From: Tricharina praecox
Taxonomy: Eukaryota
Length of the DNA stretch: 20,000 nucleotides
Direction: 5' to 3'
Assembly: GCF_024521635.1 (NCBI RefSeq)
Contig: NW_026250440.1
Coordinates: forward strand, 178,950-198,949
Shown one piece after another: positions 2,816 to 20,000 of this stretch (positions are counted from its first letter, which is position 1; the number at the start of each line of letters is the position of its first letter). The position numbers and the translations under genes were made by a program. The notes under the pieces are model-generated. The model made no database searches, was not told the origin of the DNA, and worked only from the letters and a program-made list of their open reading frames with translations.

Positions 2816-4293
2816 CTACATGCTCAAAAACCCGCGCTCAGTGAAGTTGCCGGCAGCCCCTTGCACCCGGTCCCACTCCAGCACGGCACCCAGCAACACC
2901 TGAGCTCCGAGAGCCCTGTTCGATCTGTCAGCATCTGTTCTCTTTCCCCGTACGTACGCGAACGGGGCACGGGGGGCGGGAAGACTCACCACTCCTCGGG
3001 ACCATTATCCTCCGGGACCATGACAACACCGGTCGGCACGCCTCTGCGCGCAGTATTGACAGCGTCCATTGGGCTTTCCACAAAATTCTCGACGACAGTA
3101 CCCTCGCCGAGCTCACCCACGCTGACTCCGGGACCCAACAGCCCCGTCTCGTGATCACCCAGCAAGCCACCGCCACTCACATCTTCCAAACTCTCCCTGA
3201 TGGCCGCGATACAGTGCTCATCAAACCTGAGTTCGGGCTCATCCATGACGACCTCAACCTTCTCAACAACGCCGCCCTCCTCAAACGCAATTTTCGCGAA
3301 CATCCTCAACGCCTCCTCCTGAATCTCATCCACATTCTTCCCCATAATATACAGCGAAAACTTCGCCTCCCTCGGCGTGCCCGCAAAGCCCGCATTCGCC
3401 GCCTCGAACACGCCGGTGCTCACCCTGCCATTAAGCATATTGCCCACCTCTCTCCCAGCGAGGACACACCTGCCGGCAGCAGCGAGCGCATCGCCTCCCT
3501 TGACAGACACCTCAATCCACCTCCACGCCTTCGCGCCAGTCCCGATCTCAATCTCGTCGATCCACTTCGTGGGGAGCGCCTCGAAGTACGCGCCGAGCTG
3601 CACGCTGGCGTCGAGCGAGCCCAGCCACCCGGACTCGCGCAGACACGCCTTCACCGTGCGCCGCCCCGCGTGGTCGCTGCCTACCTCGCGGATGCCCCAC
3701 GCCTCGTCGACGCCCACGTGGCCCGCCCATACGCCGCTGCCCAGGAGCGCCCGTGGAAATCGGCTCCCGCTGGAACATGACCAGCCGATCAGGGTTATTG
3801 GGTGCGTGGTCTCAACGGCGTAGTCCTGCAGCGTGCGGACTACTTCGAGCGCGGCGAGGAGCGGGAGCGGAGAGGAGTCGAGGGGCCCGCCGAGCGCGAT
3901 GGAGGGCGCCGACGGCCGCGGGGATGAGGCTAGAGGGAGGAAGAGAGAGCCGAGGTCATCGATTAGCGGGGTGACACCCAGCGTTGTGGTAAGGTAGTGG
4001 CGGAGGGAGGTTGTGGGCGGGAGAAGAGAGGTGCCCGTTGGCAGTGGATAGCTGCGAGGATCAGTGCTGCCCGGCGATCTGGAGGGGGGATTAGGCATGT
4101 ACGAGTGATTGAGGGGCTTCGCGACCGAGAGATTGGCCAGCTCCTCGACGGTGGACTGCAGGCGAGCGGCATTGATACGGATCTGTGGCGGCGAGCTCGA
4201 AGCCGAACTGTAGCGTCGGCTGTACGTGAGGGCGAGTCTTGTGGTACTCGAAGTCCGTGACGAAATGGATCGAAGAGCGCGGGTCACAAGCAT
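2816..4293 (-). CDS. M20-family amidohydrolase (beta-ureidopropionase/N-carbamoylase-like) homologue, 467 aa, predicted catalytically dead, with mitochondrial-type presequence; exons 4293-2990 and 2915-2816
   Basis: Collinear similarity to fungal beta-alanine synthase scaffold motifs (RINAARL, IDDLGSLF, LAALEVVRTL, GSRFPRALLGSGVWAG, GAYFE, AWRWIEVSVKG, DAL, FDEHCI, VPTGVVMVP). Intron 2989-2916 (TG|gtgagt...gctgac...aacag|G) restores the expected C-terminal helix WALGAQVLLGAVLEWD. The N-terminus is R/S/T-rich and free of acidic residues. Confidence 0.85.
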
Positions 4294-4764
4294 TTTTGAT
4301 CGGGTGAATGCCTAAAGTATAAAACTGGAGATAATGAAGCGAGTGTGGTTATCGTCCGTAGTGCAGAGTAGATGTCGAGGTTGTTTGTCGTGACGTCTCA
4401 GAAAGCGGGGAGCCGCAGATAGGTCGCATGCCCAGATAGCATGCCGCTGACATAGATACGGTGCCGATCACCAACTGGGGGGCCAAGTACAGCCCTATCG
4501 GGTAGAGCACATTCACTCCCTCTTCTTCGCGGATTTTCCGCTTCTCCTCACAATCAAAGCGAAGAGCAGACGACAATTTCGCTGATGAAGTCAAATGTAA
4601 ACCTGTATTGCAGTTGAGACGATACAATGCGGAAAGCCAAAGAAAATAGGGCATGACAAACACACGTCTCGAAAAAAAAAATGTACAGAACCCCAACGTA
4701 CCCCCCAAAAACACCCTATCTGCATTCTAGCAAACATCTCGGAACAGAATAACCCCCCACCTAT

Positions 4765-5604
4765 CTACCTCCTGTACCACATCCGGGTGATCTTGGTGTT
4801 CCTCATCTTCTTTTGCAACTGCAAGATACCATAGCACAGCGCCTCACTAGTGGGCGGGCAGCCAGGCACGTAGACGTCAACGGGCACGATACGATCGCAG
4901 CCTCGAGTGACCGAGTAACTGTAATGATAGTATCCACCTCCGTTGGCGCACGAACCCATGGAGACGACCCAGCGGGGCTCAGGCATCTGGTCATAGACTT
5001 GTCGCAGAGCAGGGGCCATCTTGTTGGTGAGCGTACCCGCGACGATCATGACATCGGACTGACGAGGCGAGGCACGGAAAATAATTCCCATGCGATCCTG
5101 GTCGTAGCGGGGCGTCGACAAGTGCATCATCTCGACGGCACAGCACGCGAGTCCGAAGGTCATGGGCCAAAGCGATCCTTGACGGGCCCAGTTCGCCATC
5201 GTATCGAGGGTGGTCCTGATATCACTCCGTTAGCCATCATCGCACTCGGGGTGTGGGGCGGCACCGCCGGTATCGCGGGTGATGGGTGACGTACAACGCA
5301 TAGTCGACCACGTTCTTGGGGCGCTCCTGCGACGGAAGCAGAACCTCACGACGCGCGGGACGGTCGGTGAGACCGGTCTCCTGTCCGACATGTGTGATGC
5401 CGCCGGCGGAGGCGAGCGCTGTAGGCTTCGAGGTGGAGATGGCTCGGATGGCGATGTTCCTGGATGGCAATGCCGCTACCTCAATGTCAGCGCTTGAACT
5501 GCGGGGGGGCGCGGGCGCGGACGCGGGGGCGACCGGAACATCGAAATTGGGGGACACAAACATCGCAGGGTCAGGGCGGTGGACGCGCGAGTAGTAGAAA
5601 GCAT
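4765..5604 (-). CDS. NDUFS7: NADH:ubiquinone oxidoreductase 20-kDa (PSST) subunit, 224 aa; exons 5604-5562, 5475-5295, 5215-4765
   Basis: Diagnostic motifs [44 protein letters not shown] and [11 protein letters not shown]. Two in-frame GT-AG introns with gctgac/gctaac branch sites. Mitochondrial presequence [15 protein letters not shown]. Confidence 0.98.
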
Positions 5605-6366: not shown

Positions 6367-7883
6367 TCACCAAAAGCCGCCGACCCAAGTGGTCGTCGCA
6401 AAAACCACAGCCCATGCCACTGGTACGAGCCGGCCAATATCCGGAGCACTGCTGGAACTCCTCCCGGCGCCGCTACGCTGAGCATCAGTGCCATTACCAC
6501 CCACACCCTCCCCTGCTTGAGGGGTTCCGTACCCATTCGCCATGCCCACTGGCGGGTGCCGCCTATCCGGGATGACAAGGCTTCCATTGTACGGAGTCAT
6601 GCCCTGCTTGTCGCGGACTTCATTCTTGATGCTCTGGGCCACCTCCCGCCCATTTACGACCAGGCTGATGTTGGGTAGCGGCTCGGGCGCCCACCGTGTC
6701 TTGTGGAAGGGACCCGGATACGAGTCGTTGAGATAGACGTTTGAGAGGTCGGGGTGTGGGAGAACGGTGTCGTTGGTCCGCGCTGCAACCAGGGAGAAGA
6801 CGTTTGCGCCGACATCGTAGCGACCGAGAGTGGAAAGGTTCCAGTTCGCGCACACAGTGGAAATCTCAGAGTAATGGTCTGCGGCAAAAGAGCGTAAGTT
6901 AGCCTTCCACATGACAGCTTTTCGAGAAGCAGGTGACCTGCAGCGCCGCACCATAATAGCTGTCGTCGATGGTCCCGTGCGATTCCTTCGGAACGGCTCC
7001 TCCCATGAGGATGGTGAACACACGGTTTTGCTTGGTGTACGAGTGGTTCTCGTCGAACGTAACCAGAATAAGTGTATTCTGCGCGGAAACGTCAGTACCG
7101 TCGCCATGAGATAGTCAACTTTTTCTTTTCTTTTTACCCACATTCATAAAGTACTCATTGTCCAATAAGGGCTCCAAGAAAGACCTCGTCCAGTTCCCGG
7201 CGAACGTGACCGAAGTATCATGGCCATTATTCCTCATGTCCGGAGTGAAAAAGACCCACTGGGGCAGTTTCCGGGCATCCAGATCATCATGGAAGAGTGT
7301 GTCATTCTTGATCAAACCCAGGCGCTTCTCATTCTTAGCCACGGAGTCGTAGCTGACCAGCCCACTATGTTTGCGCTTGTACTCGTTTGCCTTTGTTTGT
7401 GGGTTGTTGAACTCGTGTCCGGTGAAGCCCGTGTACGGCATGCCCTCCTGATACGAAGCCCAGCTTATTCCGGCGGGCTCGAGCAGATCCACGATCGTGG
7501 AGGTGTTGGAGGCGATGGAGATGTCGCCGTTGTGGTTGAGGCCGAAGTAGTCGCCACCCACTGCGGCGACATAATTTGGCTGCGAAGGATGCGTGAGCGC
7601 AAAGTAGTTGGTGAGTGTTATCCCGCGCTCGGCGAGCCATTTCAGATTTGCTGTGGGGAGAATCAGCGGTGAAGATATGTAGTTTGGGAACGGGCAACAA
7701 ACGGTCTCCCGCAGCCTTGGCATAATCAGTGTTTTCCAACCATATGGTGATGAAGCGATCGAACGCCTTGCCAGTGACGGAGCTGGTTGGTGAAAGTGAT
7801 GGGATTTCGGCGGCGTCTGCTGCTGCTGCAGTCGTCGCTGCCCAGAGAAAAGTTGCAGCGATAGAAGGTAGTAAGTGTAACAT
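6367..7883 (-). CDS. Secreted phosphoesterase-family acid phosphatase, 442 aa, probable GPI anchor; exons 7883-7703, 7650-7142, 7078-6952, 6878-6367
   Basis: Signal peptide MLHLLPSIAATFLWAATTAAA. Family motifs FDRFITIWLENTD, THPSQPNY, RKH, NNGHDT, LVTFDE and DHYSEISTV. Three canonical introns keep the frame. G/S-rich spacer plus hydrophobic C-terminus LVPVAWAVVFATTTWVGGFW. Confidence 0.93.
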
Positions 7884-8469
7884 GTTGGTTGATCTCTCTA
7901 CCTTTTGTCTCGGTAGCGACGGTGAAGAGATAACCTTAGAGTATAGTACTTTGAGGTTCGAAGCTCTCGGGCGAAGTAGGGGGTTGGACCTTAATAAGCG
8001 TTGGCGTCGTTGATCAGCTGCAAGGCCAATCGTACAGACAAGCCCCGCCATGTGCACATTATTGCTCCCCATCCATCTTGGGTTCTTCGGGGGCTGAAAC
8101 GACTTGTCACTTGAGACTGGAGTCGTCAGCTGGACCGGGGGGTCGGGCTATATCGATATCACTCCTACCGTTTCCAGCGGCACGGGTTGGTTTTGCCAGA
8201 AAAGCTTGTCTCATTTAACAGGGCGAAGCGAAAGCTTGTCTTCTTCGCATCGTTCGGACCAGAAGGACCCAACACACATCACCCCTGCATGAGTCGATCG
8301 TTGATGTCCTGATGAATTTCGGTCCCGCAACAAAAACCCGTGGCCTGGGTCACCTTCACGCGGGACACCGGCAATTCTTGCTGGCCAATGAATGAATTGG
8401 TAAATGGCATTTTCAGCTAACTACCTAATAGGTACATACCCAAATCGGTGGGACCGGAAAGGGGGAAGG

Positions 8470-9100
8470 CCTTAGGCATCAGGAAGGAGAGCTGCAAGTC
8501 GTGAGGCTGGACAACACCGCGAACAACAAACCGCCAGCAGAGGGAGATTACGCGTACGTGTCCTCGATCTGTAAGAGCGAACGGTGATGACCGCAACACC
8601 TGAAATAGATACCAGCCAGTGTGGAAATGAATGTTGTCTGCTGTTGGATAGCCGGAGATCCATCAACATGCCAGGGACTGCAGCGCTTTCTTGACGCCAG
8701 GCGGGTTTTGACTTCGCGATGCAAGAAGGCGAGATATTATTACCTTTCTAGGTATCTACACTGGATCCACAGCTCGTAACACAATGGTCCATGATCCACT
8801 TCCACAGGCACCTCAAGTGCAAAGGGAATGTAGCCAGGCGAGTGAGCAGAGAAAAGCGAAATGGACATCAAAACGAGCGACCACGCTCCACAGTCCTCGC
8901 CTTCCTTCGACGAACATACACAAGGGCCTGAAGAGTAGCGGCATGGACTTGCACTCGCGCCGGGAAGGATGAAGATACCTGTATCAGTAGTGTGATCGAC
9001 CAAATGCAGAAAGGCTGAAGCTCACGATACATGTGGATTGGAAAACTCTGCAACGCTAATCCAGGGGCCTGTGTCCAATGCCCATACAAAACAAGCAATT
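8470..9100 (-). pseudogene. Possible decayed membrane-transporter (amino-acid-permease-like) gene fragment
   Basis: Splice-like signals (actgatacag|, |gtaata...aacag|) flank fragments GIFILPG...GAWSLVLMSISLFSA...YLER and FPHWLVSISGVAVITV. There is no continuous ORF and the similarity is by eye only. Confidence 0.2.
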
Positions 9101-9723
9101 AAGCGAGTGATGAGTGGATTCCATGCTCGGTTTCAGTTGCCGGGAGTACACGTACACTGTGCGCTTCTGGAATGAAAATCATTTACGCTCAGTGAGCTGT
9201 GAGCAGCCATCGGGAGGGAAAGCACAGGAACTCCGAGTCCCACGGTCATCATCCGGGGGGCAAATACGGACTGGTCGCCATCTCATCCTTCTTCTTCTGC
9301 TCCGTGACTGAGCCTTGAGGTCGTCCTTGTTCATACTCCGCAGCGGAGGCTTTCCTCTCCACATAGCATCCCCAATACCTCCACCGTCTTGACCACATCA
9401 CATCAGAAGACTTCCTCTTAAGTTCTCCATATGCACGCCGTGCACCGTCTTGATCCCACGCCACACCTTTCGCACACGCCAGTTATTGCATCCTCCACCA
9501 CTAATACGGTATGCAGCACTCGTCACGCTGAGTCACGGGGGAGATACTCATTCACCGCCACGCACGCACGTTCGTCGAAACAAAACGGACTGATCAGTCG
9601 TGAGTCCGGCAACAACCAACGTATGCCATACTAGTACAGCACTGCTGTTCAAGAGAACGGTTTCCGGAGCGGATTATGTAACAGACAGCTTCGTTTTCAG
9701 AAGTCAAGTCGGGGGTTGATCGA

Positions 9724-9750
9724 CCCCCCCCCCCCCCCCCCCCCCCCCCC
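9724..9750. repeat. C27 homopolymer (G27 on the minus strand; G-quadruplex capable)
   Basis: 27 consecutive C read directly. Confidence 0.95.
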
Positions 9751-9933
9751 GAATCCCCGATACGTTGCGTGGGTGCGTGTATCCGCTTTGAATGCTGACC
9801 AGCAGGAAGACTACCTATGCCGTCGAGATCCGAGGAGCTCGATGCCACGACGGGCCCTACGGCCACCGATACCCTTGCGCCTGCCGATTCTATTGCGACC
9901 AGAGTGCGGTGGTGAAGGTTGGCGGTATGTAGT

Positions 9934-10170
9934 CAGTGTTCGACATAGTCCATTCCGTCCGTCCTGAGCCTCGGACTGGACAGGACTGCATCTTGGCAGT
10001 CTGTCTAGGAGCGGTGTTCGGACGGACTAGTCCAAAAAAATCGAGGGCAGGGCGGACTGCAGTCGACTATAGTCCGCACCCAGTTCACGAAATCCATGGA
10101 CTGGACGGACTACTTGTACGCAGTCCGTCCAGTTCAGACTGCAGTCCGGACCGGACTATGTCGAACACTG
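9934..10170 (+). mobile_element. Non-autonomous TIR element (MITE), hAT-like, copy 1, 237 bp
   Basis: Perfect 18-bp TIRs cagtgttcgacatagtcc / ggactatgtcgaacactg. Many internal GGAC(T/G) / (A/C)GTCC subrepeats and no transposase ORF. CAG-starting TIRs and an 8-bp target duplication fit hAT. Confidence 0.88.
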
Positions 10171-10689
10171 GCTGCATTTCCCCGCACCTGAGGATGAGGA
10201 TTCTTCGAGCCACGGAGCAAGGATGCGGATCGGGTAGTGGTAGATATAATACAACAACATCTCTAGTAGTTGCTAGGGATTTGTTACGGATTGTTTTGAA
10301 GACCGGTCACCAAAAGATAACTGCGCCCGGGTTTCAGAGGTGATGCTGCGCCCTTCCCAACAATACAGAACTGAAACAGCTTTTTGAATCTTGATGTTCT
10401 CGAGTCGTTGATTTCGATGCTGGGGTTGCGAACCTGTGCCTAAGTAGCAACATCGTCAGGTCCGTCTCTCCCGAGAAGCGTGCGAAATCTCTCCAGACTC
10501 CAGTGCACAGGTACGGCGGTAGAGTACCGCCGGTGGATCGCTTCATTGCCGCTCGAAGTTGCCATGGGAGTCGCCTGGTACCCCGCAATATATGATACAA
10601 CATATCCAAACTCCGAACCTCTTCTATATCACGGCCCAGTCAACTTACCTTCATAGTTCACCCAAGAGTTAGCACCAAATACATTATGT

Positions 10690-10903
10690 CAGTGTTCGAT
10701 ATAGTCCGGTCCGGACTGGACGGACTGCGTAAAAGTATTCCGTCCAGTCCATGGATTTCGCGGATTGGGTGCGGACTGCAATCCGTCCTGCCCTTGATAT
10801 TTTTTGGACTAGTCCGTCCAAACATCTCTCCCAGACGGACTGTCAAGATACAGTCCAGTCCGAGGCTCAGGACGGACGGACTGGACTATTATGTCGAACA
10901 CTG
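10690..10903 (-). mobile_element. Same MITE family, copy 2, 214 bp, inverted relative to copy 1
   Basis: TIRs cagtgttcgatatagtcc / ggactattatgtcgaacactg. The reverse complement aligns end to end with 9934-10170, with about 17 substitutions and about 5 indels by manual alignment. Confidence 0.88.
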
Positions 10904-11448
10904 AATGCAGCACCGATTGATGGCTTGTGCATGCGGAACTCGTTGTTGGTGGAATAGGAAATTGTTTCTGGGCTACCCATCCGTACTCTCCATAGCACCT
11001 AGAATATCCACGTGAGCATACCTCCAGAAGTACTATCGACAAGGGTGGCTGGTTGAGCTGTTGGAATAGTACCGTTTACCGATATTCCGCTAGAGAGGTG
11101 GTATGCCTGTGGAATTGGCCTGCCTGTCGAACCCGCTCAGACTTTAGGAGAGGAGTTTATGGATGATTGGTTAGCGTCTGAGCGGGTTCGACAGGTAGGC
11201 CAATTCCACAGGCATACCACCTCTCTAATCAGGCAACTTGACGGTGTGCGTAAGGGCAGCTACCCAGTGGAAAGCTTCTGTAAGTGCCCACAACATGTGG
11301 CGCCGCGCCGCCGTCAGCCACTGGTGCGTGAGTGTTGGTAGACTTCCTGTAGAGTAATGGTACCCGTATTGTGCCTCTGGTTTCAGAGCCGGATCCCTGG
11401 TAGCGAGTATACGAGAAAACATTCCGGTCTGACCACAGAGAAGGTGGC

Positions 11449-11509
11449 GAAGAAGAAGAAGAAGAAAAAGAAGAAGAAAAAGAAGAAGAAAAAGAAGAAG
11501 AAGAAGAAG
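11449..11509. repeat. (AAG)n microsatellite with periodic AAA interruptions; 61-nt homopurine tract
   Basis: gaagaagaagaagaagaaaaagaagaagaaaaagaagaagaaaaagaagaagaagaagaag; source of the poly-K/poly-F ORFs. Confidence 0.95.
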
Positions 11510-11953
11510 CGTCTCTTGAGTCTTGAGTACGACTGGTAGGGTTGCCAAGATCGTATCTGCATGGACGGGAGGTTCGGTGTCCCCGTAAGAAGGGCGGGAA
11601 TCTTCAAGAAAGAGCAAAGTAGAGTACTCTACTAGAGTACCTACCCTGTTGTGTAGCCTGAAAGTCTCATGTAGCGAACAAATCACAGCCTTCAAATCCT
11701 GTGTGACGGTTCCGAAGGCTGCGTTTATACATGAACTGGCAGCTACACGAACCCGAACGAGGAACCAGAGGCGCCTACATAATAACTAACAGACAGTCTA
11801 AGTAGACTTTGGTCCCCGTGCGCCTCATATTCTGGTCCTTGGCCATGGCGATCATTCCAGGCCTGGAAATGGGGGCTGGGATTCGTGTCGACAGTGAAAA
11901 TATATGTTGAGAGGAGACCCGTCTCCTACCGTACACCGCAGTGTCGCCCCGGC

Positions 11954-12758
11954 TCATCCCCTAGTAAACGGCAGTCCCTTATTGATGCGTTTGTCCGTTC
12001 CATTCAGCAACATTTCGGACTGTACTTGATACGAGCGATACTGGATGTCGAACAGCCCCGCCACCGTGGTGTTCTCGCTCGTAGCACTTTGCCAGATGTC
12101 GAAAATACCCGCGGGAATTTCTGCGGTCACATCTAGATTTGGCCCACGGGTATTCGTTCCATTTGCGGTCCTTCCCGGCGGCCACGACTGTCCCGGGCAC
12201 GGCATCGAAAACGCGCCACACAGCCGCGTGAAGCCGTACTCATCCCTCTCGGGAATGCCGACACCGAACGGGCCATCGTCGCGCACATACTCGAAGGGGC
12301 GGACCCTCGAGTGCTTCCCCGCAATCTGCTCTGAGAGGCCGAGAGGCGTGACTACTCCGGCAATAGCCAGGAAAACTAGCCCGAGTGCACTGAATATCCG
12401 CAGCGCGGTCACCCGTCCGTTCACGTTGTGGAAGTTGGTCGAGTCCGCGGACAGGATCGTCGGCCAGAACGTGGCGTGCACGAAGCGGCAGACGACGGAC
12501 CTAAGGAGCTTAGAGGTTGATCGACATCGGGCTGCCGCCGGATGCAAGCACGTACCATGTTGCGGCCGTGTTGCCTTTGTTGAGCACTCCGGCTAGGACA
12601 AATACCAGCAGCAGTGGAAACGTGATTTGAGCTTCGGATTCGGTCGGGTCAGTCCTGGGTACATAGTCGTCGGGGATGGTGAGATGGAGCGAGTACAGAC
12701 CGATGAGGATTGCAAAGTTGATGGCACCGGACACTTGACCAACCGTGATGTCGGTCAT
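11954..12758 (-). pseudogene. Inverted N-terminal third of a fungal multi-pass membrane glycoprotein of unknown function; exons 12758-12701, 12631-12556, 12500-11961
   Basis: ATG in gcaagATG context. Two introns (gtctgt..actgac..aag; gtacgt..ctaag..tag) give MTDITVGQVSGAINFAILIAQITFPLLLVFVLAGVLNKGNTAATWSVVCRFVHATFWPTIL...AGVVTPLGL...FDIQYRSY...INKGLPFTRG, with three hydrophobic segments. It ends at the inversion breakpoint. Confidence 0.8.
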
Positions 12759-12768
12759 CTTGCTGCAG

Positions 12769-14422
12769 AGAGGCTCCTTCCGCATGTTCGATTCGCTGGC
12801 TTTGAATAACAGATACGGTATCATCGAGGGCCTAGTTGTTGACACCATAAATGGCGGCATCGCATTCCGTAATCATACCATCCCCACAGGACTCTCGCAG
12901 GGCGGCACATGGAAGGAAGACCTGCTTTGGGTCACGCCGGACACCGAGTGCGTCAACATGAACTTAACGCTCGAGTTCGTGATGCGAGGAGAGCTCGGCG
13001 GGCCGGGGCACTACGTCACCCTGCGGGATAACGGGGGGTTCAAGAACTTGGTCAAGGACTATCAATACATCGATCTTAACGATACGCAGGCTCGACCGAC
13101 ACTTGCGGGCCGCGCCTGGAAGGCCGCTTCGTTCAATAACCTGCTGTTGATGAGGTACTTGAACTTGACACGTACCGGAGTGATACCCGAGACCTTCAAT
13201 ATGACCGGTGAGCTGGGAAAGGCCCGGTTGGATCCGTATCAGCTTCGCATGCACGATACCGGCCTTAATCCTCTGCCAGGACTGCCATTCAACGATGAGC
13301 TCGACACCGGTAAGCCTAGGTTCTACATACTACCGTGTATCCTTGTATGTGCTTTGATGCTGATGAGCGTATGGGGATAGATGCCATTGCGGAAGGATAT
13401 GGAGGTGCAGACATCGCCAGCATCAACCGTATCGCAGCGAAAGTGGGTCTCTTGATGGGCATGGCCAGCCCTCTCGGCAACAACATTGCGGCTTCGATAC
13501 GGCGAGAATCCAACACGAACTGGAAGCAACCGCTCTACGTCTGCGCCTCCGCACTGAAGGCTTCGGTGCAAGAGGTGACCTTCGCCGTCAACGGCAGTTC
13601 CATCTCCGACATCCAAGTCATGGACGTTTCCAAAACAGCCCGAGTGAGACTCTGGGCAGTGGAAGACAGCGGGTATGCCATCGCCAACATAGACCCAATG
13701 TGGGGACTAGTCTCGGACGAGTGGGAGGACGCACCGGGCTGTCAATTCTCCGCAGCGACCGACTGTACCTCCCAGCCGGCGCGGGAGGAACCTTCTCCAG
13801 CGGCATCTCATACCAGCCGGATGCGATGGCCGGCACCCACGGGCTGCTCACCGTTCTGAGCGAAACATACACAAAAGTTCTGACCGTCGGCGCGCTTTCC
13901 GCGCCCGAATACCTGCCGGACTACACCGACTTCGTCAGCTACCCGATGTACACACGGTGGCAGAACCTGTCGAAGAGCACCGAGTCCGCCACACTAATCT
14001 TCAACCTCCTCTGGACGGACATCGCCGCGAGCCTGGTGACGGGCAGCAAGCCTCATCTCGCATCATCATCAACAGCATCCGCTGACCCCTCGCGGCCTGT
14101 CCTCGTCTTCGAGCGTCGCATCAAATACGACCTCCGCTACGCGATCCCGGCGATGCTCTTCGCGGCGCTATGGCTGGTCCTCGGGATCGCGTTCCTGCTC
14201 GTCCTGCTGTTCGCTGGCACCAGAGTTGCGCATATCACGCAGCTGCTCAATCACACCGCCACCGGAAGGGTCGTCACGAACATCGTCGCTCCGGATATGG
14301 CCCCGCCTGGGGCGCCGACAAAGGAGTGGGCGAAATCCGCCGGCGTGATGAGTTTTAGGCTGGAGAGTGAGAAGGTTGCCGTCGAGAGGGTGGAGGGGTG
14401 CCTGCCGGCGAAAGGGAGTTAG
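12769..14422 (+). pseudogene. C-terminal two-thirds of the same membrane-protein gene; intron 13310-13380; 1-nt frameshift near 13733-13739
   Basis: RGSFRMFDSL...IEGLVVDTINGGIAFRNHTIP...WKEDLLWVTPDTECVNMNLTL. The G|gtaagc..gctgat..tag|AT intron joins to GYGGADIA...WKQPLYVCASALKAS...WGLVSDEWEDAP. The frame then switches to LSILRSDRLYLP...LWTDIAA...IKYDLRYAIPA + TM + LLNHTATGR. Confidence 0.8.
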
Positions 14423-15895
14423 GTTGCGTACTTATACTTGGTTGGAAGGGGCGGATTTAATAAGATGAGATGTGGTGCGGCATCCAACGGTAACCAGTGG
14501 CCGTGGCCGTGGGAGGCAGGACGGATACGGTATAAATCGCTTATGTAGCGCAAGATATTCAGAGTAAATAAATGATCCCAAAGCTTTAAATGTGGTCACT
14601 CCCGCCGCAAATGTTCATATGTACTCACTCACTACTCAGTCAATGAAGGCAGGTGGCAATGGGTGGTTTCTGTCACCATGGATTTATATTTGTTGAAGTA
14701 TTTGGGTAGAGAGATGGTGATATTCTATTCGGTACAGAAAGAAGTAGATACTGGTATTGCAATATCTCCATCTGATTCTGGGATGGTGGATGGCTGAGAA
14801 CCTATGTAGTTCGAAAGTCTGGGGAAATCGGACCACCCTCTCGGAACCGAATGCATAACTTCGGTACTCTATATAGAGTAGCCTCGCAGTTTTCCAACCA
14901 ATCAGACCCCACAGGCCGATCGTTAACCGAACCCACACCCATACAGGGCTCAGATACGTAGCGTCATTGATGATTGCAGGCGAAGATGCCAATGCTAAAA
15001 ACAACCTCATTGCAGCACCGGGCCCAAGTTAACAATATTAAGGAACTGCATATTGTCGACTGAGCCACAACTTCACAGATTAATCTGCGGACAACCACCA
15101 GTACATCGTTGTCAGAAAATAAGAGCGGCGTGCTGTTGAACATCTGGGATTTCGGACGGGTCATCGGGGGAGATGAGCGTTTGCTTCCGGCTGCGGCTTT
15201 GGTAACCTTCAACTGGTCAGAAACCCCAGGTTGAAACTGAAAATGTAGCTGGTACCTGAGCAGTGTGGGACGCAGCTGGAACTGGCGTCTTGGTAGCACT
15301 TTTCGACCCTTGGCTGCGGACCTTGGGCGGATTTTTCGCCAAGACGTTGGGACTGGCTGTCGTACCTGGGGCTGCAGGGGGGACCTGTTTCTGTTTTGCT
15401 CGTCGATTCTGTTTTGTTTTGGTTGCTCGTGTTCTTCTTGACGGTTGTACGACGATGCGGCGGCGGCCAAAGTTGGCCGATCTGTTATATTTATGTCGGC
15501 GGGTTTGTCTGTCTCTCCCTCATCCTCCATCATCACTATTCTTCACCTATCGATAGTTCATCACTTGATTTCTTTGCTGCTTGCTTTCTTCAAGTCGGCC
15601 GACGGCCGCTCCGGCTCCTGCTCCCTCACTGCCAACCCAACCACAACAATAATCCGACATCATCAATGATCCCAATAATACCTCCCGATTACCCACCCTC
15701 ATACATCACATTAATCCCTGCCAACAACCCGAATCCTTTGGTTCGGTTACTCACCATCTTCCGAGCCCTCCGTACCCTGATATTGAGCGGAGGATAATAA
15801 CCGCCTACTACGCCCGCCACGCACGGGCCAAATGCATCCAATGTCGGTTGGTTCCGGATACCGAACGTTTTCCTTTTCCGAAAGTGGCACGAAAT

Positions 15896-16854
15896 ATGCC
15901 TGGCGAAGCAATTATTGAGTTTGCTCTACCGCGGTTGGTGAGTTCTTCCTTCGGTGCCTACCTATCCCACCGTCCTCATGCTAATTGCAATAGCTTCTAC
16001 CACCTAGCATCGCACCGCAACCTCCCCCGCTACCGGTACTCCCGGTCTTCGCCGTACACTGTGTGTCCTGTGTCGTTCCGTTTCACAATGCTATTCGCAA
16101 CGGAGGTTGGCTTCAGTGGATTGCAAAGGGCTTTGGCCCTTCCTATGATACCTGGGAATGGGCTTCGGCCCTGCCCACGGCAAAGGGTTTTGCGCTGCCG
16201 ACAATCCCCGGTCAGACTACGAAGGCCGGCGGAGCACCGATGCCAATCGCAACGAGGTCCATCTGTCGGCTGTGCTTCACGCATACCTGTCTCACAATCC
16301 TCTTAATTAGGTGCAGAAATACCCCATATGTATGTAGAACCTGTTGTTGTTCTACGTTCAAACGGCTGATAATTGTTTCGGGGATAATAAGATCCTTTGC
16401 TTCGCGCCCGATTGGGTGGGCATCGCTGCTTCCACTCCCACCTGACTGCCTCTCTGTCTGGTACAGAAAACAAACCTCACAAAGCAAAGAAGTTATACTG
16501 GACGGTGAGGATGGCTACTCTATATCCCTGGGGCTTCTCGCCACAGGCCAGGTCTGGATGGATGCGGGAAATCAGGGGGGGCCGCCGAATCATGTATCGA
16601 ATATGTCGTACACTAGGCCGGTCTTTTACATCGCGAGCGCCGCCTACTCCGCAGGGCTTACTGAAGGAGAGCTCTGCCACTATCTTAGCAGTGCGTCAAT
16701 TCGCACCCTAGGACCACCACCCATCCCGCCTCGCACGAGCTCACTTCCACCTGTTACTGGCCGGATGTACAACATGGGAAACTGGAGCTCCGTCTCCCTG
16801 ATTTCATCGTTGTCTTCTGGACCCAGCATGATGAATTTGGTTAGCATCTCATAA
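15896..16854 (+). other. Possible spliced hypothetical gene or gene relic
   Basis: Strong intron 15938-15993 (gtgagt..gctaat..tag) joins MPGEAIIEFALPRL in frame to the 16063-16854 ORF. There is no recognisable family, and a further intron-like signal at 16330-16391 would lead to a stop. Confidence 0.25.
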
Positions 16855-17436
16855 ATCCGGCATGCACACCAACAATCCTGCAAGAAGAATTGAGTTTTGG
16901 CTTTTTAGTCGCTTGCATGTGGAGTGATTGTTTTTCTTATTTTTCTTTAGCACATCGAATCTGAATAGGAGGATGGTCTTGTTCATCTCCCATTGTGCCT
17001 GAAGATATTTTTGTCTAGTGTGAGAGATTCATTGTAATAAAAAGGCGTGGATACTTGGGAGAATCGAGAGTAACTCAATATCATGGTCCGGCGACAATAA
17101 TACCAGTAGTAGATACTGCGCCATATCCCTTTGAATGTTTCCACTGAGTCGAGGTACGGCACGGAGGGGGTGGAGAGACAGGTGGGTGGAGGCAACTTCA
17201 TAGTGTGTACGTTCTGATGTCGGGCTGACGTCAAGTGGTATGGTGAGGTAACTGTGCGGCCGACTAAGAGATCCCTCGCCACTGCCGTACCACCTATGCC
17301 CGTACCACAGGCCAGCCTCCTTCAGCCGGCTGATGTTACCGGTTTCTAGGCTTTGTTGAAAATAAACCAAGCCGAGTGATTTATGGTGAAGATCGGTGAT
17401 GAATTGCCGAGATTTCTCCGGCAAGATGTTACACGA

Positions 17437-17467
17437 GGTCACGTGTGACCAATCATCGTCCCATTGG
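17437..17467 (+). promoter_or_regulatory. E-box (CACGTG) within a GGTCAC-n2-GTGACC dyad plus two CCAAT boxes upstream of MCT1
   Basis: cacgtg 17440-17445, ccaat 17449-17453 and attgg 17463-17467, all 60-90 bp before ATG 17527. These are short motifs and function is not demonstrated. Confidence 0.3.
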
Positions 17468-17526
17468 TTTTCCCCACCATCTTCTCCGCCAGCGCTCCTC
17501 GCACACGACCATCACCATCCTCGACC

Positions 17527-18808
17527 ATGCCGCCAACTCTCCATCTTCGGCTACCGCCACCGCCCCTGAAGTGCCTCTTCAACTTGCGTAGCCAACGCCA
17601 TGCCGTGCGGCACTCCTCGACTGCTGCGTCCACGCCCCCACCGTCGCGACGGCGGCCGAAAACTGCCATGTTCTTTCCAGGTAGAGTACCCATCCCACGC
17701 ACGCACGCACGCGCGCGCTCCTCTGTGTGCCAGGGCTCCCTTTGCTTACACATGTCATGGCGCAACCACAGGCCAGGGCACGCAGAAAGTCGGGATGCTG
17801 ACGCCACTGCTGTCGGCGTTTCCGCGCACGGTAAAGCCGCTGTTCGAGCTCCTGGACGACACGCTGCCGCCGGCGGACGGGCAAGCGCCGCTATCGCGGA
17901 TCATTGCCGAGGGGCCCAACGAGGTCATCACCGCGACGGAAAACGCGCAGCCCGCGATCCTGTTCACGTCGATCGTGATCCTGCGGATCCTTGAGCAGGA
18001 GTTCAACCTCTCGCCGCGCGCGCAGACAGACTTCTTTCTCGGACACTCGCTGGGTGAGTTCACGTCGCTGGTGGCTGCGGGCGTGTTGAAGCTCGAGGAG
18101 GTGCTGCGGCTTGTAAGGCGGCGCGGAGAGGTCATGCGGGACTGCGCGATCCGCGCGTCGATACCGGAGATGGAGGGCGGGCCAGGCGAAACGGGAATGG
18201 TCGCGCTGCTGGTCGAGCAGAAGTACCTTCCCGGGTTAATTGCGAGCGTTGATAGCTTCATGCACTCGGAGACGCTGCCGAATGATGAGTTCCTGAGCAT
18301 TGCGAATATCAACTCGTCCACGCAGATCGTCCTCAGCGGCCACTTGAAGGCGATCAATATGTGCATCTGCCACATTCGGAAGTTTTCTGGACATGACCCG
18401 CGCGCGCTGCGTCTTAATGTCTCGGCCCCGTTCCATTCGATGGTTATGGCGCCTGCTGTCCCGGTCGTCGCGAGGATGCTGCAGGAGATGGAGGTCGTCT
18501 TCCCCCCGCCGGATGGGGCGGAGGTGATCGCTAATGTTACTGCAAAACCTTACGAGTCCGCCGAGCAGTTGAGGCAGCAGCTGGCGATGCAGTGCACAGC
18601 GACCGTCAAGTGGGCGGAGAGCATCAAGTATCTCGATCTCGAGCGGGACGTGGCGCGGTGGATCGGGATTGGGCCGGGTAAGGTGGGGCGGAACTTGGTG
18701 GGTCGCGAGGTTCGGGGCGGCATGAAAAGAGTCGTTGGCGTCGAAGGTAATGACGCCAAGAACCTTGAGGATGCCGTGAAGGCGCTTGAGAGGATGGATG
18801 TCGATTAG
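17527..18808 (+). CDS. MCT1: Mitochondrial malonyl-CoA:ACP transacylase (FabD family), 396 aa; exons 17527-17680 and 17772-18808
   Basis: The intron joins TAMFFPG to QGTQKVGM (family FPGQG motif). TENAQPAI, catalytic GHSLGE, RRRGEVM, ANINSSTQIVLSG, VSAPFHS and IGPGKV are all present. Basic presequence. Confidence 0.95.
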
Positions 18809-19126
18809 TGCGATCCATGTTCTCTATGATGGGCGTTTCGATCGACCGGTGGACTTCTGCAAACTTGCATTGCGTTTCTTTAGATGTTTGGCGTCTTGGT
18901 GGAGCATATATTGAGTGATTTTCCTTTTTTTTCTTTTGGCTATGATAGTGACGGTTGGCACTTTCCTTCTCCTTCTTACTTGGCTCGAGTGGATAACCCT
19001 TTTACTTTTGCTTGTATTTTTACTTTCTCCCACTGTTTTAGGTATATATACCAGCTCATCACGAAATCTAGCTGATGAACACATATGCTTGACGCACACA
19101 ACCCTCTCCCATCTCTCCCACTCTAT

Positions 19127-19966
19127 CTATCTGAGCATGACCATCCCTCCATTGGCACACACAACCTGGCCGGTACAGTACTGCGCATCGGCACTACAAA
19201 GCATGCCGACAATCCCCGCCACCTCCTCGGGCGTTCCCCAGCGCCCTCCAGTCCCCGCGTACAGGTCCACCCGGTCCTTGTAAACGCCCGCCTTCTCGGC
19301 CGCGCTCAGCTGTGCCAGCGGCGTCAGCTGCAGCAGCGGCCGCATCTGGTCGTGGAACTCGGGAGATGTCGTCCCGTACCTGCCCATTGTTCATCAGCCG
19401 CCTATCCTTCAAGGGGGGGAGGGGGGCAACTCACATCCTAGTATCGACCGGCCCGGGATTGATAGCATTAACGGTGGCCCTCTCGGCGAGCTCCCTCGCC
19501 CACGTCCTCGTCATAGCCTCCAGGGCGGCCTTGGTACCACCATAGACGCTCTGCGCCATGAGTCCCATACTCGCGCTGATGCTGCTAACATTCACAATCC
19601 TGCCTGAGCGGTCCTTCGGCAGGGAGTTCACGGCCGCCTGCACCAGCAGCAGCGGACCACGGACATTGACGTCGTACTGCCGCGTGAACTCGTCGGCCGT
19701 TACCGCACCAAGGTAGTGGTTCCCTGACGTGCCAGAGTTGTTGATGATTATGTCGATTTGACGGCCGCCGGCGGCAGCGATCACGGATGAGGGACCGCTG
19801 ACGCTCCCAAGGTCCGCACAGATGATGGAGACGGACACGGATGGGTATTGGCGTGCCAGGCTGCTGTGTACTTCTTTTATTGCCGCGAGAGAGGTGGGAG
19901 AGCTGTGGTTTAGCAGCAGCGAACACCCCTTGCTGGCCAGGTTGTGGGCTACTGCCGCGCCGATTC
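19127..19966 (-). CDS. Classical short-chain dehydrogenase/reductase (FabG-like), 5'-truncated by the window edge; exons 19966-19435 and 19379-19127
   Basis: GIGAAVAHNLASKG (end of the GxxxGIG motif after the acceptor at 19967), IDIIINNSG, VNVSS, catalytic YGGTK, NAINPGPVDT and RWGTPEEVAGIV...CTGQVVCANGG. Intron 19434-19380 is canonical. Confidence 0.93.
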
Positions 19967-20000
19967 CTGCGCGGGGGTTAGCAGAGGCGGGGAAGGGAGA

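Follow-up and report, generated by a model that had tools for sequence, protein, structure and literature searches.

What happens to a gene when its own first part is turned around? This question is raised by a locus of Tricharina praecox, a saprotrophic post-fire cup fungus, where the two halves of one predicted membrane protein lie head to head on opposite strands. The locus could be an assembly chimera, a switch that turns the gene on and off, a split gene that is still used, or a gene inactivated by inversion. We analyzed a window of 20,000 nucleotides at the very end of contig C37, in an assembly of 38.4 Mb and 104 contigs. As set out below, the locus is very probably a recent, transcribed unitary pseudogene that originated in a one-off intragenic inversion. 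The collinearity of both halves with intact homologues, the inverted form seen in four of four sequencing runs, and further lesions at the locus all support an inversion of this kind, which was among the readings first proposed for this DNA.

The two halves are collinear with intact homologues

The initial annotation had described the N-terminal half (N-half) as minus-strand exons that run from an ATG at 12758 to a TGA at 11956-11954 (226 aa), and had let the C-terminal half (C-half) begin at 12769 on the plus strand. Both sets of coordinates were confirmed, the N-half comprising three exons (Table 1). The N-half has no internal stop, and the 5' part of its third exon gave a profile match with an E value of 1.2e-50 in a four-sequence search.

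Table 1. Coordinates of the features of the inverted locus, in positions of the window.
Feature	Position	Strand	Remarks
TATA-like element, old promoter, outside the inversion	11897..11905	+	Seen in the sequence; putative function
Probable 5' end of the transcript	11944..11947	+	X3 contig from 11944, X2 contig from 11947; a weak hint
Exon 3, 5' part	11954..12500	-	Crosses the breakpoint and runs to TGA 11956-11954
Left breakpoint zone, CCCCT at 11958-11962	11958..11964		Register from homologues; bridged by the X1 contig
Inverted segment, ~810 bp	11961..12770	-	Short 5' UTR, start codon, two introns, codons 1-224
N-half intron 2, 55 nt, GT..AG	12555-12501	-	
Exon 2	12556..12631	-	
N-half intron 1, 69 nt, GT..AG	12700-12632	-	
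Exon 1, ATG at 12758	12701..12758	-	Homologue residues 1-49 align
Right breakpoint zone, AGAGG at 12769-12773	12767..12773		Bridged in inverted form in X1, X2, X3 and X4
Exon 3, 3' part, start of the C-half	12769..13309	+	
C-half intron, 71 nt, GT..AG	13310..13380	+	Spliced out in the X2 and X3 contigs
Last exon, C-terminal membrane helix, TAG 14420-14422	13381..14422	+	
1-base frameshift	13736..13738	+	Homologues go from frame 3 to frame 2
Asp in the window and X2	13928..13930	+	Gly in 27/27 homologues, X1, X3 and X4

Each half was compared separately with 176 proteins (P0004-P0180, minus P0024, which is identical to the C-half piece). Both halves were matched by 145 of these homologues, the C-half alone by 31, many of them short or devoid of an N-terminal part, and the N-half alone by none. 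Collinearity across the junction had been named beforehand as a check on the inversion, and it was borne out: the order was N-half then C-half in 145/145, and the junction gap was 0 residues in 37 of the 50 homologues with alignments ending no more than 5 residues from the junction on either side. In an alignment of 27 sequences, the last residue of the N-half occupies column 316 and the first residue of the C-half column 317. The junction columns and gap counts therefore fix the register of the inversion at left + right = 24731, which takes in both 11961-12770 and 11958-12773, the exact cut being ambiguous within about 11958-11964. These observations confirm that the inversion is real. The restoration of an open frame was set aside as evidence by itself, since many neighboring breakpoint pairs also give one.

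It had also been claimed that turning the segment back restores the reading frame of a protein of 751 aa. The register of this claim is right, as judged by the homologues; the length (224+298+1+1+227) is valid only with an extra base at 13736-13738. The flip alone yields 563 aa, runs out of frame past codon 523, and loses the final membrane helix.

Several homologue records (P0110, P0135, P0159, P0163, P0165, P0170, P0176, P0180, and similar ones) start within ~15 residues of the junction position; they are probably fragments produced by gene calling or contig ends.

Independent sequencing runs carry the inverted form

The region is partly present in six public runs, of which the best four (X1 to X4, from three studies) were examined as contigs, a form of data in which rare variants are dropped and strand is not shown; the shares of X5 and X6 are 0.24 and 0.05. 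In X1, a soil run, one contig covers 11892-13479 with 0 differences and spans both junctions. The right junction was crossed in the inverted form by contigs of all four runs. The left junction was bridged by at least 31 bases on each side in X1 only; the X2 and X3 contigs start just 11-17 nt left of it, too short to count as bridging. Among the pieces listed for the four runs there was no strand-changing joint, and the plus-strand intron was the sole joint listed, one X4 joint at an AAG repeat being left out. An imperfect AAG-rich repeat lies at 11439-11510, ~450 nt upstream of the left breakpoint, and contigs break there.

Compared with the window, X1 shows one difference (13929), X3 five and an indel, and X4 nine and two indels, the X3 and X4 variants being read from single contigs at a depth of about 3-6, so that some may be errors. 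These three runs therefore represent other strains. X2 shows 0 differences over the gene and may come from the same isolate as the genome.

The runs bear directly on the reading of the locus as an assembly chimera. The locus does lie within a 10.9-kb overlap of two contig ends: window positions 9080-20000 equal C30:1-10925, differing only by 4 C in one run (99.96% identity over 10,000 nt and 100% over the rest of C37). Because the same sequence closes C37 and opens C30, the locus is present twice in the assembly; the C30 copy is redundancy and not a second allele, and the two contigs probably join. That copy had been considered as independent support for the inversion and was dropped for being the contig-end overlap. 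However, the X1 contig spans both junctions with 0 differences, though X1 differs from the window at 13929, and the contigs of X3 and X4, which diverge from the window at several sites, have the same form across the right junction. We therefore reject the chimera, provided that these contigs and the assembly have separate origins, and leave it practically no probability.

Transcription appears to read the flipped exons antisense

The X2 and X3 contigs, from two studies, begin 39-42 nt past the TATA-like element. The start of the X2 contig carries only an adapter-like loose end of 22 nt, and the DNA run X1 continues across 11944-11947. That X2 and X3 are RNA is a guess; both splice out 13310-13380. 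The X2 contig (2,670 nt, from 11947 to 14665) lacks the plus-strand intron and retains both minus-strand introns, and X3 likewise retains the 69-nt minus-strand intron; no spliced minus-strand intron was found in the contigs of the four runs. A coverage hole in X3 around a minus-strand intron (12483-12574) was set aside, X3 having several other holes. The simplest reading of the X2 and X3 contigs is a plus-strand transcript that reads the flipped exons antisense. The intron pattern of X2 and the 5' ends thus lend indirect support to the earlier proposal that the old promoter drives antisense transcription. With the segment in its ancestral orientation, the transcript start would be followed by the ATG after 26-29 nt. 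The 342 nt that precede the minus-strand ATG contain no TATA-like word, which is weak evidence, as many fungal promoters have no TATA word.

Could such a transcript still serve a purpose? According to one alternative, the locus still yields a working product from one half or both (the 226-aa minus-strand N-half, or the C-half starting at ATG 12748 or at 12784), or the antisense RNA is regulatory. The open N-half agrees with this, as do the coverage of the C-half by spliced RNA, the in-frame ATG at 12748, and the public model P0024, which annotates the C-half as a protein. However, ten AUGs precede 12748, the first in-frame ATG of the C-half, and the spliced product from it would be a frameshifted protein of 346 aa. 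An N-terminal hydrophobic segment is missing from the C-half, whose frame is shifted in the window, X1, X2, and X4; there is no contig with spliced minus-strand introns; and no intact copy was found that could be an antisense target. P0024 (window 12748-14422, 537 aa) comprises the C-half only and relies on a donor at 13320, rather than 13310, that the RNA contigs do not support. Use of donor 13320 shifts 119 codons into a frame not matched by homologues and thereby hides the frameshift in this model. Altogether, we consider a functional split gene very improbable.

Further lesions point to recent decay without selection

The homologues change frame at 13736-13739 without a gap. The base missing at 13736-13738 is absent from the window, X1, and X2 and present in X3 and X4. 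X4 lacks another base at 13033, within a run of six G, a call that is less sure (one contig, depth 5). As far as its gapped coverage of the C-half goes, X3 is free of frameshifts.

Substitutions were also found at conserved columns. Besides the Asp listed in Table 1, the window carries Gln where 23/27 homologues and X4 carry Pro, and X3 and X4 have changes of their own; the conserved columns that changed include Gly 27/27, Tyr 25/27, Leu 24/27, Asn 23/27, and Pro 23/27. Among 13 distinct coding substitutions between strains, 11 are nonsynonymous, with 75% expected in the absence of selection. Neutrality would give at least 11/13 with a probability of 0.34, compared with 0.007 for omega = 0.3 and 0.0007 for omega = 0.2, in a small, low-depth sample that has no neighboring-gene control and in which errors would mimic neutrality. 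The substitution pattern thus looks neutral, as would be expected of a sequence free of selection. The decay appears to be recent, because 58 of 62 highly conserved columns are kept, which is within the range of intact homologues.

The inversion is the only lesion common to all alleles seen and is therefore most likely the founding one. Alternatively, the inversion hit a gene that was dispensable or silent by then, as one of several lesions and not as the cause. Three changes of the window at conserved columns, in addition to Gly-to-Asp, have no other letter listed in any run, as this alternative would have it. However, every frame-breaking lesion besides the inversion is confined to some alleles, and the retention of 58/62 conserved columns is normal for the family. 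We regard this order of events as very unlikely.

No intact paralogue was found in the genome, where three homologue protein queries and one DNA query matched this locus only, a search that could miss distant paralogues. Metagenome contigs were also screened for close relatives that carry the flanks; 0 of 59 pattern matches were confirmed, and the screen yielded no sister-species orthologue.

The breakpoints and the question of reversibility

The initial annotation had placed the breakpoints in a tiny imperfect inverted repeat, CCCCT/AGAGG. Such a repeat is present, with 4/5 bases pairing in register, but it is only suggestive, because a 4/5 match within a 12-position diagonal was obtained by chance for 7.5% of 100,000 random position pairs. 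Comparison of the 61-nt zones at the two breakpoints gave an exact inverted match of 5 nt at most, which is off-register. No long inverted repeat was found there among the longest 25 of 256 pairs, and there are no transposon ends at the breakpoints, the nearest inverted-repeat element ending at 11227, ~730 nt from the left one. The breakpoint repeat is compatible with microhomology, yet it provides no evidence of a recombination site. Of the proposed inversion by microhomology or template switching, the one-off inversion is supported and the microhomology mechanism is only plausible.

Two kinds of repeated elements occur in the vicinity. The first (11091-11227) measures 137 nt, is bounded by terminal inverted repeats of 52 nt (98% complementary), and has TA at both ends. 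It has near full-length copies at 7 other places of the genome and other flanks in run contigs, and it looks like a MITE, which may be of the Tc1/mariner type. A second MITE-like element, with ends CAGTGTTCGA...TCGAACACTG, is present as opposed copies at 9934-10170 and 10690-10903 that are 80-83% alike. It gave 45 genomic matches (from 40 of 92 candidates scored), including similar opposed pairs ~0.4-0.5 kb apart on contigs C72 and C20, and showed no evident target duplication. Further away in the window lie frames that we assume to encode a peptidase-like protein (2986-4311, minus strand), the complex I PSST subunit (4765-5229, minus), an acid phosphatase (6367-8147, minus), a malonyl-CoA:ACP transacylase (17570-18808, plus), and a short-chain dehydrogenase (19127-20000, minus).

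The most far-reaching reading of the locus is a reversible ON/OFF switch, in which flipping of the segment, at meiosis or under stress for instance, restores the surface protein in some nuclei. The join is exact at the codon level, the promoter appears active, X3, without a frameshift where covered, might be intact, and a rare orientation would be invisible in contigs. Moreover, the filamentous ascomycete Sclerotinia has a reversible inversion that truncates a gene (PMC3574095). However, the Sclerotinia switch is served by identical 250-bp repeats, compared with the 4/5 bases and the off-register 5-nt match at the present breakpoints. The inverted orientation alone was seen in 4/4 runs, a small sample of contigs that drop rare variants. 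In addition, the window allele, when flipped, would still be frameshifted (563 aa), and the substitutions look neutral. We thus find the switch suggested earlier to be unsupported and highly improbable. A true switch would have to operate on only 2-5 bases of homology, with the frameshifted alleles being locked-off derivatives, a version that we likewise hold to be highly improbable. If it were true, contig assembly would miss an uninverted state that is rare or confined to one stage, X3-like strains would regain the full-length surface protein, and the locus would represent phase variation of a fungal surface protein, from a family without a clear structural relative, achieved without long repeats.

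The lost protein belongs to a large uncharacterized family

Intact homologues of ~720-910 aa were found in many ascomycetes and one basidiomycete, as judged by labels, and 521 clusters at 50% identity match a 181-aa piece of the C-half. Hydropathy analysis gave two N-terminal membrane segments and one C-terminal segment, with 12-18 N-glycosylation sequons in the whole protein. The structural model of the homologue P0025 had a pLDDT of 77.6; its ectodomain alone (residues 100-692) reached a pLDDT of 89.0 and a pTM of 0.92 and was modeled with confidence, showing very long beta-strands. The inversion break maps inside a predicted beta-strand (P0025 236-240) of this ectodomain, which forms one unit; therefore, the two halves are not separate domains. 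The lost protein is thus predicted to have consisted of two N-terminal membrane helices, an N-glycosylated ectodomain of ~590 residues, and a C-terminal helix. Our best guess, from predicted topology alone, is a cell-surface sensor or channel-like protein.

Database comparisons yielded no clear family or structural relative. Pfam gave 0 families for 11/11 sequences, and a sequence-profile search of the PDB gave 0 matches. Foldseek searches of the PDB with the full model and the ectodomain returned 0 hits at E <= 0.001, and the viral library 0. In VIA, the full model matched only by its three-helix membrane bundle (best Z 9.8, 86 residues, rmsd 2.6), which is uninformative. For the ectodomain, 0 of 48,161 chains reached Z >= 5 in VIA (best Z 3.3, rmsd 3.2, 84 residues), a missing match that does not show a new fold, obtained with a 593-residue model above the advised size; several PAS/GAF domains appeared at Z 2-2.5. 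Feature neighbors in the Atlas, which are leads only, were clusters with DUF8406 (58% of members), DUF3176 (24%), and CLZ1_N (15%). A P2X/ENaC-like layout, which may still apply, found no support in the structure-match lists. The ectodomain is possibly an undescribed fold, as modeled, in a large unnamed fungal family.

A probable unitary pseudogene founded by inversion

Taken as a pseudogene, the locus can be described by the following sequence of events. A single accidental inversion of ~810 bp would have flipped the first 224 codons of the sole gene copy detected, probably when a break was repaired or the template switched at 2-5 bases of microhomology. The promoter would have been left in place, where it appears still to fire. 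Since it stayed put and active, the RNA would read the flipped exons antisense, pass through the ten upstream AUGs, and continue into the C-half in sense, so that no full-length protein would be possible. Afterwards, the alleles would have drifted without selection, with separate frameshifts and substitutions in each strain.

A unitary, that is, single-copy, transcribed pseudogene is a known concept. The present locus resembles one in that no intact paralogue was found, disabling lesions are present, substitutions look neutral, and transcription appears to persist. It differs from the usual unitary pseudogene in that the founding lesion would be an inversion; therefore, both halves are near-intact, and gene callers annotate one half only (P0024). 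No paper on the locus or its family was found in the literature searched, which includes few subscription papers.

The pseudogene would be a clean natural case of a gene lost to an inversion of less than a kilobase and caught at an early stage; four alleles allow its lesions to be put in order, and its orphaned promoter is apparently still active. It is also an annotation trap, the public model keeping the C-half only and masking the frameshift by an unsupported donor. Furthermore, it would be a natural null for a widespread uncharacterized family whose ectodomain has no clear solved relative. A specialist would find no surprise in the pseudogene unless the flip were reversible.

Comparison with known inversions

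Inversions between human and chimpanzee offer a parallel on the scale of mechanism. These microinversions are precise, 17-33 nt long, and flanked by short, sometimes imperfect inverted repeats, and break repair or template switching has been proposed for them (PMC8755829). The present inversion shares with them its precision and a short, imperfect flanking repeat; it differs in its length of ~810 nt and in a repeat that is not above chance.

Among reversible systems in fungi, the nearest real switch is the MAT inversion of Sclerotinia sclerotiorum, in which 3.6 kb is inverted between identical 250-bp inverted repeats, segregates 1:1, and occurs widely in both orientations (PMC3574095). Like it, the present case concerns a filamentous ascomycete, an intragenic breakpoint that truncates a gene, and no loss of sequence. 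Unlike it, the segment here is 0.81 kb, the repeat is of 4/5 bases, a single orientation was seen in 4/4 runs, and further disabling lesions are found at the locus. In the MAT flip of Ogataea (Hansenula) polymorpha, a region of ~18 kb is inverted upon nutrient limitation, whole genes are moved, and both states are functional (PMC4238957). That system and the present one are both fungal inversions in which orientation decides which sequence is expressed, whereas in T. praecox there is no sign of induction or of a second state.
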